Notes: generated by a model from the letters alone, not told the origin. A stretch of 64,000 nucleotides of DNA from an uncultured Gammaproteobacteria bacterium (GCA_964354025.1 CAYGXQ010000005.1:3366-67365), one strand, 5' to 3'. Positions 52,608 to 55,796 are shown, numbered from the stretch's first letter. Translations and numbers: made by a program.

Positions 52608-52943
52608 ATGAAACTTCTGGCTGAGTGGATTTTGCGGGCTTTTATCCTGATGGCGACGACTTATTTCGTCCCGGGATTCAAAATAGACTCCTATCTGACT
52701 GCTTTTGTGGTGGCGCTCGTTTTGGGGATTCTCAATGTCCTTCTAAAGCCGATCCTCGTCCTCTTTACCCTGCCGGCGACCATCCTGACGCTGGGGCTTT
52801 TCATGTTCGTGATTAACGCCATACTCCTCATGATCGCCTCAAATTTCGTCCGAGGCTTCCATGTCTCCTCCTTCGGCACGGCCATAATTGCCGCCATCGT
52901 CATCGCCCTCATCTCCAGTATCCTCAACGTGATCTTCCAGTAA
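52608..52943 (+). CDS. Holin-family (PF04020/YvlD-like) small membrane protein
   Basis: Four TM segments; ..LNVLLKPILVLFTLPATILTLGLFMFVINAILLMIA.. pattern. Confidence 0.6.
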   Translation: MKLLAEWILRAFILMATTYFVPGFKIDSYLTAFVVALVLGILNVLLKPILVLFTLPATILTLGLFMFVINAILLMIASNFVRGFHVSSFGTAIIAAIVIALISSILNVIFQ

Positions 52944-52985
52944 ATTTTTTGTGATATTATCCCACCCCCCCCTTTTTTTTCTTGT

Positions 52986-53651
52986 TTGCACTATTATCTA
53001 ATAAATAGTAATATATCAACTCTTATGGCAAACATTGAAGCGGATTATCGCAATCCTATTGTCTCAAATATCATTGATATGTCCCGTATCTGGAGAGAAC
53101 CCATAGATGATTTCGTCGAAAGGATTCATCCGATAAACAGAATGCTTCTTTTTGCCCAATGTCATCTCTGGGGTGAACGATCTGATATGGAAACAACATT
53201 TTTATCAGCATTTAAAGATGGTTTACCGAAACACCAAAAAGAACAACTACTTGATTCCTTAAGACCAAAAACTGAATCCTATCATGTGAAACTCGAGGCT
53301 TTTGAATTTTTATCCGGTGTTGCTTCTGAAATGATTGGAAAAGCCTCGCAAGAGAATAAATTAGATAGTCTGGGTATCCCTGATTTAATGGCTGAAATAC
53401 AAAGAAGAGAGGCTGAATGCTTCCAACTATCTGAAAAACTTGAAGTGTTTCCTGCCTTAGCAGCTATTCCCGGACAGGACCAAGGATATGATGAAGCGAT
53501 TAAAGAATATGGATTGTATCCGACTGTATATGAATTAATAGGTATTGACTCATGGCCGAAAGGCAAAAAGAATAAATTATTAAGATTTGTCCCTCCTGCA
53601 CCACCTGAAAGAGAGTGGTCTGTCAGTCCTCCAACAAATTTTTCCAGATAA
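52986..53651 (+). CDS. Hypothetical protein
   Basis: ORF. Confidence 0.45.
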   Translation: MHYYLINSNISTLMANIEADYRNPIVSNIIDMSRIWREPIDDFVERIHPINRMLLFAQCHLWGERSDMETTFLSAFKDGLPKHQKEQLLDSLRPKTESYHVKLEAFEFLSGVASEMIGKASQENKLDSLGIPDLMAEIQRREAECFQLSEKLEVFPALAAIPGQDQGYDEAIKEYGLYPTVYELIGIDSWPKGKKNKLLRFVPPAPPEREWSVSPPTNFSR

Positions 53652-53653
53652 AA

Positions 53654-54976
53654 TTATAAGTCCGCGAGTATTCTGAAATATTCAGAGATGACCGGCCCGA
53701 TAAATCCGGCTAATTTTTCCTGTCCTGCCCGGATAACTTTCCCGTGATCAACCTCAAAACTTCCTCCTCCGGCTCTCGGATCAACCAAATCTGTGGCTGC
53801 CACAATGGCTAAATACGGCAATCGTCTGTCAAATGGAGTTGAAGAAGGCTTGGACATCTGGTGATAGGCGGCAAGTTCCGGAGCCGTACCCATACCATGG
53901 GCTATCGCAATAGGCGTATTTGGAAATCTTCTATCTTCAACTGGTGTTTGAACCTCTAATTCCTGTATCTGCCGTGCAACTACCCTTGCCAAAGCCCAAT
54001 CAGCAGCATCCTCAAAACTTGGTGGTTTATGACAGTCAAAAAGAAACGCCAAATGTCTTGAGGGTTGTGGGTCTTCCGGCCGATAAGCGGCATTAGCATT
54101 AATTAACGATTCAAATAAATTAATCAAACTCTGATCAGATGTCCTGTCTGCACCCGTCTGGAATGGCCCCCCGAAAACAGAACCCAACAGCGTCTGGTCA
54201 CCGCAACCCGGATCTGTTCTGGATATTCTGCCGACTAGATCATCATTTAAGACAACATATCCTATATCTCCGATTTGGGGACGGGCAATTCCTTCTCCTT
54301 CCACCGCATCCATGCCTGAAGCGAAAGTGGTAAAAACTGATTCTACTCCCAAACCTTTCAATACTCTGGGCACTAAAGCCAGACTGTGTTGTGGCCATGG
54401 AGACCCTTCTATCGAATAATCATGTTCCCGGCCTTCCCAGACTAAAACAGTAGCTTTATTCCCACTCCCACGCTTTCCCGTGACTTCATAGACATGCATT
54501 TTCCCTCCGGTATGACCGGCCACAGTAGGTTTGGCCAGATAAGCAAGCGGTTGCTCACCATATGCCAGTTCAAATACTTTCCGCAATCCCTCACCCTCTT
54601 TCGGTAATGGAAATCCGGTACCCGGCTGGTAGGATAAAATCCGCTCCGGTAATTTATGTTGTATCAAAGCTGCTTTTATCCCCAAAGTCATCTCACACAC
54701 CTGTTCAAGATGGACATACTGAGCAACCATATCCATTTTCCTTTTCCCCTGAATCGTCATCCATTCTCCGGCAGAAATTCCATGTTGTCTTAGCCTTTGC
54801 AATTCATCATAATCTACTCCATTTTCTCGTAAGGTAAGTGATGATCTGTCCAATACCCCGCAAACCATATTAAGAATAGGCTTAAGCTTCTTCATTCCTT
54901 CAGCGTCAAGCGGTGCAGTAGGAGAAATGTCTAGGGAATGTCTCACATTAGAGGTAGCTATTGTTTCTGTATGCAT
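53654..54976 (-). CDS. Hypothetical protein (440 aa), GC-richer than its surroundings
   Basis: Long ORF; composition differs by eye from the flanking AT-rich TA genes. Confidence 0.55.
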   Translation of the reverse strand: MHTETIATSNVRHSLDISPTAPLDAEGMKKLKPILNMVCGVLDRSSLTLRENGVDYDELQRLRQHGISAGEWMTIQGKRKMDMVAQYVHLEQVCEMTLGIKAALIQHKLPERILSYQPGTGFPLPKEGEGLRKVFELAYGEQPLAYLAKPTVAGHTGGKMHVYEVTGKRGSGNKATVLVWEGREHDYSIEGSPWPQHSLALVPRVLKGLGVESVFTTFASGMDAVEGEGIARPQIGDIGYVVLNDDLVGRISRTDPGCGDQTLLGSVFGGPFQTGADRTSDQSLINLFESLINANAAYRPEDPQPSRHLAFLFDCHKPPSFEDAADWALARVVARQIQELEVQTPVEDRRFPNTPIAIAHGMGTAPELAAYHQMSKPSSTPFDRRLPYLAIVAATDLVDPRAGGGSFEVDHGKVIRAGQEKLAGFIGPVISEYFRILADL

Positions 54977-55043
54977 ATATTTGGATTTTGTATTAATTGA
55001 GGCAGGCGGTAAGAATTATACTTAACCAATTATCATAATGCAA

Positions 55044-55107
55044 CGCTATCCTCGCCGCCATCGTCATCGCCCTCATCTCCAGTATCCTCAACGTGATCTT
55101 CCAGTAA
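55044..55107 (+). repeat. Duplicated 3' end of the holin-family gene (last ~18 codons plus stop), near-identical to 52880-52943
   Basis: 54 nt identical (gccgccatcgtcatcgccctcatctccagtatcctcaacgtgatcttccagtaa), plus a similar 10 nt before it. Confidence 0.75.
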
Positions 55108-55179
55108 TATATGCTATTTCTTATCCGGCCGGACAGATGATAACATATATTGACAATCTCGGGGATTAAATATTGTTAA

Positions 55180-55404
55180 TCACGTCATTAATTTATATTC
55201 TTCCGGGTCTAAATTAATATCTCTTAATATTTTTCTCAAAAGTCCTCTTCCTATTTCTTCTCCTTTATGCATAGGTACTACTGTTTCTCTTCCGTCTGGA
55301 TGTTGAAGAATCAGATGACTGCCTTTTTGTCTTACAGGAATAAATCCGAGTTTATGCAGTATTTTGAGCAATTTAATTGCCTTAACTGGGGATAATTTAG
55401 GCAT
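55180..55404 (-). CDS. hicA: HicA mRNA-interferase toxin
   Basis: KGSHLILQHPDGRETVVPMHKGEEIGRGLLRKIL pattern. Confidence 0.75.
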   Translation of the reverse strand: MPKLSPVKAIKLLKILHKLGFIPVRQKGSHLILQHPDGRETVVPMHKGEEIGRGLLRKILRDINLDPEEYKLMT

Positions 55405-55654
55405 ATTGGATTTTTATATCCTCTATCCCGAAGAAGTTGATCATTGATTGCGGAGACTTGATTTTTTCCTTCTTTAATTCCTTGTGAACTTCCAGATACA
55501 AATCTATCGCCTCTTTTATCCTATCCCGTACTTTTTCCAGCGTCTTGGCTTGGGTATGACAACCGGGTAACTCAGGCACTGAAGCAATATAATATCCATC
55601 TTCATCCTGTTCTAAAAGTATTTTAAATTGTAAATAATTATTGGATTTTGACAT
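55397..55654 (-). CDS. hicB: HicB-like antitoxin
   Basis: EQDEDGYYIASVPELPGCHTQAKTLEKV pattern; 8 nt overlap with hicA. Confidence 0.7.
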   Translation of the reverse strand: MSKSNNYLQFKILLEQDEDGYYIASVPELPGCHTQAKTLEKVRDRIKEAIDLYLEVHKELKKEKIKSPQSMINFFGIEDIKIQYA

Positions 55655-55708
55655 ATAGGGAATTATAGCATATTAATTCTAATAAATGGCAACTCTGAGG
55701 ATCGAACC

Positions 55709-55796
55709 ATTCCATGTCTCCTCCTTCGGCATGGCCATCCTCGCCTCCATCGTCATCGCTATCCTCTCCAGCATCGTGAATGTGATTTTCCAGTAA
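55709..55796 (+). repeat. Second, diverged copy of the holin-gene 3' end (about 85 percent identity to 52856-52943)
   Basis: ttccatgtctcctccttcggcatggccatcctcgcctccatcgtcatcgctatcctctccagcatcgtgaatgtgattttccagtaa. Confidence 0.7.

Follow-up and report, generated by a model that had tools for sequence, protein, structure and literature searches.

Orphan copies of the 3' end of a holin-family gene bracket two small gene cassettes in a contig of probable Gottesmanbacteria origin

Phage 21 and e14 are integrative elements that occupy the 3' end of the icd gene. For elements that target gene 3' ends, tandem occupation of a single site is known (PMC8409611, PMC2297512), while strings of orphaned 3' ends in type VI secretion system (T6SS) effector loci and Rhs loci have been proposed to arise through homology-facilitated illegitimate recombination (PMC5361080). 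The means of gene exchange used by genomes of the candidate phyla radiation (CPR) are poorly known. Here we describe a 64,000-nucleotide (nt) stretch of DNA (CAYGXQ010000005.1:3366-67365, hereafter the window, in which all positions are counted) where an intact gene of the Pfam family PF04020 (Phage_holin_4_2) is followed by two partial copies of its own 3' end, with one small gene cassette in front of each of them. The gene and the three copies of its tail are as follows.

52608-52943, plus strand: intact PF04020-family gene, 111 amino acids (aa), full-length Pfam match
52857-52943, plus strand: copy 1, the working 3' end, consisting of the last 28 codons and the stop of the PF04020 gene
55044-55107, plus strand: copy 2, an orphan 3' end of 64 nt, the last 58 nt identical to copy 1
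55710-55796, plus strand: copy 3, an orphan 3' end in a 'beta' version, 87 nt, 85% identical to copy 1

The open reading frame (ORF) at 52608-52943 covers the whole of the PF04020 profile (positions 1-105 of 105, E 3.4e-34), is preceded by a putative sigma-70-like promoter match at 52571-52599, and has homologues of up to 93% identity in Gottesmanbacteria, which place the window in Candidatus Gottesmanbacteria (Microgenomates, CPR bacteria). Repeat finding, pattern search and self-BLAST were concordant in identifying the three tail copies, all of which are in direct orientation. Copy 2 is identical to copy 1 over the 54 nt aligned by BLAST (52890-52943 and 55054-55107, 54/54, E 1.7e-23) and by eye over 58 nt (52886-52943 and 55050-55107), with weaker similarity extending back to about 55044, while copy 3 matches copy 1 at 74 of 87 positions (55710-55796 against 52857-52943, 85%, BLAST E 3.8e-12). 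These repeats are real and not a matter of chance: a second match to a 51-mer of the tail was obtained in none of 100 dinucleotide-preserving shuffles. In all three copies the TAA stop codon is the limit of strong homology, with about 10 nt of weak similarity beyond it after copy 1. The two orphans start at different codons, 64 nt (copy 2) and 87 nt (copy 3) before the stop, and copy 2 has no in-frame start codon. Its 58-nt block is preceded by the hexamer ATCCTC, as is the corresponding part of copy 3, where copy 1 has ATAATT, and the C-terminal peptide encoded by copy 3, SSIVNVIFQ, is that of the homologue P0001 on contig L081. An earlier note on this DNA, made from its sequence, had placed the end of an intact holin-family gene at 52943 and a near-identical recurrence of its last 54-64 nt at 55044-55107, both of which stand; the diverged distal copy which it reported is also present, but runs for 87 nt from 55710 and not for 88 nt from 55709.

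Between these copies lie two cassettes, whose contents agree with the earlier description of a first interval with two genes, one of them GC-richer, and a second one holding exactly the hicBA pair.

52944-55043: cassette 1, 2.1 kb, two ORFs, between copies 1 and 2
53025-53651, plus strand: 208-aa ORF of cassette 1, no Pfam match
53654-54976, minus strand: 440-aa ORF of cassette 1, no Pfam match
55108-55709: cassette 2, 0.6 kb, holding hicA and hicB only
55180-55404, minus strand: hicA, Pfam HicA_toxin PF07927, E 1.3e-19
55397-55654, minus strand: hicB, Pfam HicB_lk_antitox PF15919, E 1.4e-9

The 440-aa ORF is the GC-richer of the two in cassette 1 (about 0.45-0.49 against about 0.36-0.40). In cassette 2 the only Pfam matches are those to HicA and HicB, and the two genes are adjacent with an overlap of 8 nt, as in HicAB type II toxin-antitoxin systems.

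Related contigs, although the closest of them are short and close relatives are thinly sampled, carry the gene in single-copy arrangements. In L081, whose protein is 93% identical, one copy of the gene is present, and its last 64 nt share 58 positions with copy 3, as against 53 with copy 1. The gene is followed there by 19 nt, an unrelated 313-nt insert encoding a 73-aa protein, and then by the DNA found in the window at 55809-55974 and 56121-56198 (90-94% identity); the uninterrupted gene for which the earlier note proposed to compare relatives was found (L081, L091), but in L081 it joins the DNA beyond 55796 only past these 19 nt and the insert. The barest layout is that of L091 (83%), where the ABC permease gene (window 46917-48146) and the PF04020 gene are followed after 4 nt by a convergent argS (window 58842-60917). 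In L092, L093 and L095 the interval is filled with yet other genes, giving, together with L081, L091 and the window, six different fillings of one interval, and in more distant Gottesmanbacteria a convergent LOG-family gene overlaps the tail of the PF04020 gene. An orphan holin end is absent from the six related loci L081, L082, L086, L091, L092 and L095, the P0017 contigs show a single context throughout and no orphan ends, and a degenerate pattern of the holin end had no match in the viral and Joint Genome Institute (JGI) metagenome collections. Cassette 1 is absent from L081, L091 and L092. The hicBA pair is found in the Microgenomates contig L093, adjoining the tRNA-Ser region of the same island and free of holin-end flanks. 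Because relatives show the single-copy arrangements of L081 and L091, the interval 52944-55709 is inserted DNA within a hypervariable island, whose left boundary is formed by the ABC permease gene (46917-48146) together with the PF04020 gene, and whose right boundary is formed by tRNA-Ser (57905-57988) together with argS (58842-60917).

Self-comparison of the window revealed the same architecture at two other genes, plus a third similar repeat past a stop codon. A 493-aa beta-lactamase-family gene (13531-15012, minus strand) has its last nine codons and stop (13531-13560) repeated at 11856-11885 with 29 of 30 positions identical and one synonymous change; the homology ends at the stop codon, and the copies, of which the orphan is the downstream one, are 1.6 kb apart and bracket a ribbon-helix-helix (RHH) antitoxin (13214-13477), a RelE/ParE-like toxin (12973-13224) and a 322-aa gene. 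At the gene 29807-31273 the last 14 nt and 35 nt of downstream sequence (31260-31308) recur at 32147-32195 as a 49-nt direct repeat (46/49), bracketing a single 255-aa gene (31374-32141). The third case is a 40-nt direct repeat (39209-39248 and 43457-43496, 37/40), which begins 6 nt past the stop of a permease gene (37994-39202), does not overlap the coding end, and encloses 4.2 kb with an AAA_14/DUF4143 ATPase, an RHS-tip-like gene, a PIN toxin and a CopG-like antitoxin.

Comparable layouts were found in other Microgenomates contigs, which had been fetched for other reasons. In L092 the argS tail (1469-1493, 2255-2279) brackets a toxin-antitoxin pair of nucleotidyltransferase-like type; in L090 the ndk tail (2771-2803, 3580-3612) brackets a PIN-RHH pair, with synonymous changes that reach the stop codon; and in L094 perfect 29-nt repeats (40-68, 611-639) flank hicBA. 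In L104 and L105 a 570-aa gene is followed by two further copies of its tail, both of which lie behind an MNT-HepT pair of their own (5445-5524, 7065-7170 and 7860-7904 in L104), and this orphan layout is present in at least six independent Gottesmanbacteria assemblies, L106 included, from different samples and assemblers; in L103 gaps of N lie exactly at repeats of this type. The succession of working end, cassette and orphan is seen at five further genes, with a repeat located 6 nt past the stop of a sixth, and orphan lengths across loci range from 27 to 106 nt. By one simple definition, four orphan gene-tail repeats were counted at three loci in the 64 kb of the window as opposed to five in a 1.24-Mb control, a density about 15 times higher, where the control consisted of unrelated bacterial loci (distant Proteobacteria and other non-relatives) among the matches listed for a generic peptide pattern and at least three of its five repeats are not comparable cases. 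No motif is common to the repeats of different loci, and a search for a shared motif at the cassette ends gave nothing beyond a weak GAAATA, present at two of the five right ends, that was judged not meaningful. Because the repeats share no motif, a single site-specific enzyme could not, judging from these sequences, serve all of the loci.

The differences between working and orphan ends bear on how these copies came about. Over all cases, working and orphan ends differ at 30 codons, and at 21 of these the change is synonymous (in L090 even one stop codon stands for another); the amino acid replacements seen in the holin tail are of conservative type (T/M, I/L, A/S, L/I, L/V). Copies 1 and 3 differ at 13 sites, only one of which is a second codon position, and the differences form a mosaic, with one in the first 29 nt and 12 in the last 58, which suggests, on these small counts, a crossover or conversion boundary at about 52885/52886. 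Since the codon differences are so largely synonymous, the tails appear to have diverged as parts of working genes in different lineages and to have been brought together later, and would therefore not be copies made in place that subsequently decayed.

The reading which we favour, with moderate confidence, is a serial displacement of 3' ends by homology-anchored host recombination with diverged relatives, taking place in a hypervariable island. On at least two occasions, DNA from a diverged relative would have been joined into the last 60-90 nt of the PF04020 gene, each incoming piece carrying its own version of the coding end together with passenger genes. Pairing would have occurred through the gene's own sequence, the incoming DNA bringing its tail and whatever lay behind it, and its far end would have become attached within the resident tail, by illegitimate joining if the DNA was linear (homology-facilitated illegitimate recombination) or by a single crossover if it was a circle bearing a short gene-end 'handle'. 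Each time the resident end would have been shifted downstream as a dead fragment, and a dedicated integrase would not be required. As for the order of events, which we infer as we do the mechanism, hicBA (cassette 2) would probably have arrived before cassette 1, possibly in a donor lineage before transfer, and cassette 1 is probably the most recent addition. Copy 3 runs directly into native downstream DNA and is the copy most like the L081 tail, and for these reasons it is most likely the end that the resident gene originally had; beyond it come the native spacer and a terminator-like hairpin read from the sequence at about 55816-55847. Copy 2 would be the end after the first event and copy 1 the current one, its last 58 nt (52886-52943) representing an 'alpha' version that was probably brought in with cassette 1. 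The layout is the one that such displacement leaves, namely a constant 5' part and then orphaned 3' ends, with the newest insert beside the working gene. The earlier note had likewise taken the downstream copies for displaced gene ends around inserted DNA and as suggesting successive insertions, and we retain both points, given that relatives are single-copy and that two orphan ends imply at least two displacement events.

To this account we add three proposals: that orphans are short because recombination between long direct repeats would remove the cassette again, that the excess of toxin-antitoxin cargo reflects the difficulty of losing such genes, and that homology ends at the stop codon because the intergenic spacers of compact genomes are a few bp long and not conserved. 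Several points weigh against it. Similarity to the left of 55044 (GCAACGCT vs GCACGGCC) and to the left of 55710 is fuzzy, so that microhomology at the right-hand joints (55043/55044 and 55709/55710) is weak, and neither a donor genome nor an intermediate consisting of gene, hicBA and copy 3 was found among the relatives, which are short contigs. In most cases the stop codon is the exact limit of homology, and no orphan is longer than about 105 nt. An element-borne mimic of the gene end would predict both features directly, and to account for them recombination needs two auxiliary arguments, compact spacers and the tendency of long repeats to be lost. A crossover or gene-conversion boundary must also be invoked where the 58 identical nt of copies 1 and 2 adjoin a 3/6 mismatch, and a recombinase could lie outside the 64-kb window.

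Site-specific integration, the main rival, which was how the earlier note had interpreted the locus, would make the cassettes integrative elements or their remnants, with an attP mimicking the gene 3' end and with tyrosine or serine recombinases that have been lost or act in trans. The topology is exactly that of attL, element, attR and a restored gene, with bracketing direct repeats of which the proximal one completes the gene, and relatives have an unoccupied, empty-type site (L081, L091); the homology goes no further than the stop and most differences are synonymous or conservative, like those of classic gene-3'-end integrations, the stop-codon boundary and the short repeats are direct predictions, and elements that target tRNA genes are known to accumulate in tandem and to leave degraded remnants (bioRxiv 10.1101/2020.12.28.424599). 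We nevertheless hold this explanation to be doubtful. Pfam scans of about 55 ORFs of the window (essentially every non-nested ORF of at least 90 aa, plus small toxin-antitoxin ORFs) gave no match to an integrase, recombinase or transposase, in keeping with the absence of an integrase from the window reported earlier, and the cassette ORFs had no recombinase match in Pfam, NCBIfam, PHROG or PADLOC, leaving none beside the putative att sites. The cassettes, at 0.6 and 2.1 kb, contain cargo alone; the orphans start at different codons, which would call for two specificities; the site is not used again in the other genomes examined (the six loci and the viral and JGI scans); hicBA occurs in L093 away from any holin end; and the pattern recurs, each time with unrelated repeats, at no fewer than six other genes, which would mean many lost integrases, one per locus.

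The synonymous excess also bears on the possibility that the copies were made in place, as long target-site or slipped-replication duplications formed at insertion which then decayed. The 58-nt identity of copies 1 and 2, the perfect repeats of L094 (29 nt) and L090 (26 nt) and the single differing site in the first 29 nt of copies 1 and 3 would all fit such an origin, but for decay one would expect neither a lone second-position change among 13 differing sites nor 21 synonymous codons out of 30, and over the last 64 nt the L081 gene is matched better by copy 3 than by the working copy. To our knowledge, moreover, no bacterial insertion mechanism gives duplications of 26-106 nt of variable length, and we consider this origin improbable. 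A still smaller probability is assigned to an artefact of metagenome assembly, in which strain variants were concatenated through a shared gene end. The contig is indeed metagenome-assembled, identical proteins are recorded from one NCBI contig (75.5 kb) only, repeats of 54-58 nt are within the k-mer range of assemblers, and L103 has its N-gaps at analogous repeats; against this, the junctions between cassette and mid-gene sequence (55043/55044 and 55709/55710) cannot result from collapsed or chained repeats and have to be present in reads, the identity of copy 3 is no higher than 85%, and an analogous orphan array is present in at least six independent Gottesmanbacteria assemblies. Integron attC sites, dif/Xer modules and transposon target duplications were rejected, the repeats being locus-specific coding tails, far longer and more variable than known target duplications.

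The remaining features of the cassettes and of the island around them are these.

51850-52523, minus strand: brnTA-like toxin-antitoxin cassette with a Pfam CopG/BrnA antitoxin match, just upstream of the PF04020 gene
55106-55151: imperfect 46-nt palindrome directly after the copy 2 stop (inverted repeat I1, 27-nt arms, 78% complementary)
55166-55681, minus strand: hicBA module with its upstream region, the core of cassette 2, limits taken from the comparison with L093
55687-55708, minus strand: tRNA-3'-end-like 22-mer GGTTCGATCCTCAGAGTTGCCA, between the hicB upstream region and copy 3, unique in the window

The proteins of cassette 1 had no match in Pfam, PHROG or PADLOC and only sub-threshold NCBIfam matches to purine nucleoside phosphorylase (E 0.0015, noted for the 440-aa protein). 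The 440-aa protein belongs to a very rare family, with 4 members in 5.8 billion proteins, and its AlphaFold model (predicted local distance difference test score, pLDDT, 49.5) was too poor for a fold search; one homologue, in L090, sits beside AbiEii and PIN-RHH modules. Exact look-up of the window's PF04020-family protein and of a 100%-identical 440-aa protein returned no recorded contig. In cassette 2, the limits of the hicBA module follow from 94% identity to L093 1700-1890 and 79% to L093 1876-1932, and the palindrome at 55106-55151 is possibly a former terminator of the PF04020 gene and of hicA.

The hicBA homology to L093 stops at 55681, which places 28 nt, including the tRNA-like string, outside the shared module. 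That string had been described as resembling a tRNA 3' end and as lying immediately next to the distal copy; its place holds, but a tRNA origin is not supported. No exact match to it was found in 2.9 million viral contigs or 241 million JGI metagenome records, the 20 tRNAs of the fetched loci are all unlike it (at best 14/22), and Rfam gave no match to it, tRNA-Ser being the sole Rfam match in 51000-58500. Chance alone would give its T-loop-like 10-mer 1.75 times per window. The position of the string at a junction is curious, but it cannot be called a tRNA fragment, and a remnant of a tRNA-gene-targeting element was rejected, as no tRNA matched in the collections, the fetched loci or Rfam. 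An ATG at 55686, inside the string, opens a 36-codon ORF that runs in frame through copy 3 (55686-55796) and would encode one transmembrane helix; no ribosome-binding site is evident.

The brnTA-like cassette is part of the same variable island, is absent from L081 and has the 8-mer TATATATT on either side; a second, diverged brnTA pair is located at 57029-57615. The non-coding stretch that is 90-94% conserved with L081 is broken in the window by a 146-nt insert (55975-56120) with inverted-repeat ends (GTCATTGCGAG ... CTCGCAATGAC), which looks like a small hairpin-type mobile repeat and which lies within a predicted stem (CGCAGGAAACCG pairing CGGTTTTCTGCG) upstream of a dockerin-domain gene (56263-56793). 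Perfect 15-nt inverted repeats (55941-55955 and 56964-56978), 1008 nt apart, flank the dockerin-domain gene. The 73-aa gene of the L081 insert (703-924) is resembled by two paralogous 82-aa genes of the window (33815-34063 and 35590-35838), each beside an AbiE-type pair, and may be another small travelling cassette gene.

Further from the island, an ABC ATPase gene (37112-37783) is flanked by perfect 34-nt inverted repeats rich in TAGCGTT (37074-37107 and 37780-37813), of which a third copy lies 28 kb away at 9219-9255, after an ndk-like gene (8800-9216). The window also contains a 2274-aa RHS-repeat protein (1954-8778) and three genes with N-termini like the end of an RHS core and with shared 5' stretches (41169-41900, 43539-44789 and 45522-46853), which look like orphan polymorphic-toxin tips; a 25-nt piece of the upstream region of the RHS-type genes recurs at 48225-48250.

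Taken alone, the holin gene is one well-documented instance and no new mechanism; the part worth following is the association of orphan tails with toxin-antitoxin pairs in Microgenomates. Within about 100 kb of Microgenomates sequence, eight or nine loci show the pattern, most of them with toxin-antitoxin pairs as cargo and with silent-site divergence between the tails. The literature searched contained no account of CPR toxin-antitoxin cassettes with orphan gene tails on either side, and as far as these searches went the recurrent association in Microgenomates is undescribed. From orphan gene tails one can read how many times, and in what order, a site has acquired DNA, and the orphan 3' end of a neighbouring gene is a simple, computable marker for recently gained cassettes in metagenome-assembled genomes. 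If the pattern were general, an integrase-free recombination route would lie behind much of the toxin-antitoxin load and strain variability of CPR bacteria. A bolder proposal, which we regard as unlikely, is that Microgenomates cassettes travel as units of cargo plus a 30-100-nt coding tail of a housekeeping gene, the tail serving as a 'homology handle' for host recombination with no element-encoded recombinase and one orphan tail being left per event; if true, this would be an unrecognised, integrase-free form of cassette gain, and would explain small genomes full of toxin-antitoxin modules.

Compared with known systems, chromosomal integron arrays are similar in stacking small cassettes, promoterless or self-promoted and often of toxin-antitoxin type, with short repeats, but use attC hairpins with a conserved core and IntI acting at attI, whereas the repeats described here are locus-specific coding tails and no IntI-like protein was found; an integron cassette array was rejected for want of a core shared between loci and of an integrase match in the window scans. 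In the tycheposon arrays of Prochlorococcus (bioRxiv 10.1101/2020.12.28.424599) newcomers also push older units into the island, partial target copies lie between units and remnants persist, but tycheposons target tRNA genes and carry tyrosine recombinases, where here the target is protein-coding and no recombinase is seen in the window. Closer in topology are the gene-3'-end integrative elements (phage 21 and e14 in icd, SGI1 in trmE), in which a coding end supplied by the element keeps the gene intact and the old end remains beyond the insert as a direct repeat with mostly silent differences. These have their own integrase beside att and one fixed crossover, unlike the present locus, with its orphans cut at different codons and its tiny cargo-only cassettes, and because the defining recombinase was looked for in the window and not found, we would not file the locus among them despite its topology.

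The C-terminal displacement of Rhs, contact-dependent growth inhibition (CDI) and T6SS loci (PMC5361080) differs in that variable toxin domains are displaced there and kept with their immunity genes, whereas here the orphans are short (27-106 nt), the tails are conserved, non-toxic coding ends of ordinary genes and the cargo consists of toxin-antitoxin or uncharacterised genes. A polymorphic toxin (Rhs/CDI) orphan array was accordingly rejected, the displaced ends encoding a conserved transmembrane tail and the cargo being hicBA and two uncharacterised genes. What the present locus shares with these systems is a constant 5' part followed by orphaned 3' ends, which each incoming module would have pushed downstream, and the lack of an integrase, here in the window scans. 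The process would probably be alike as well, with one side of the incoming DNA anchored by homology and the other, as proposed for those loci, joined illegitimately.

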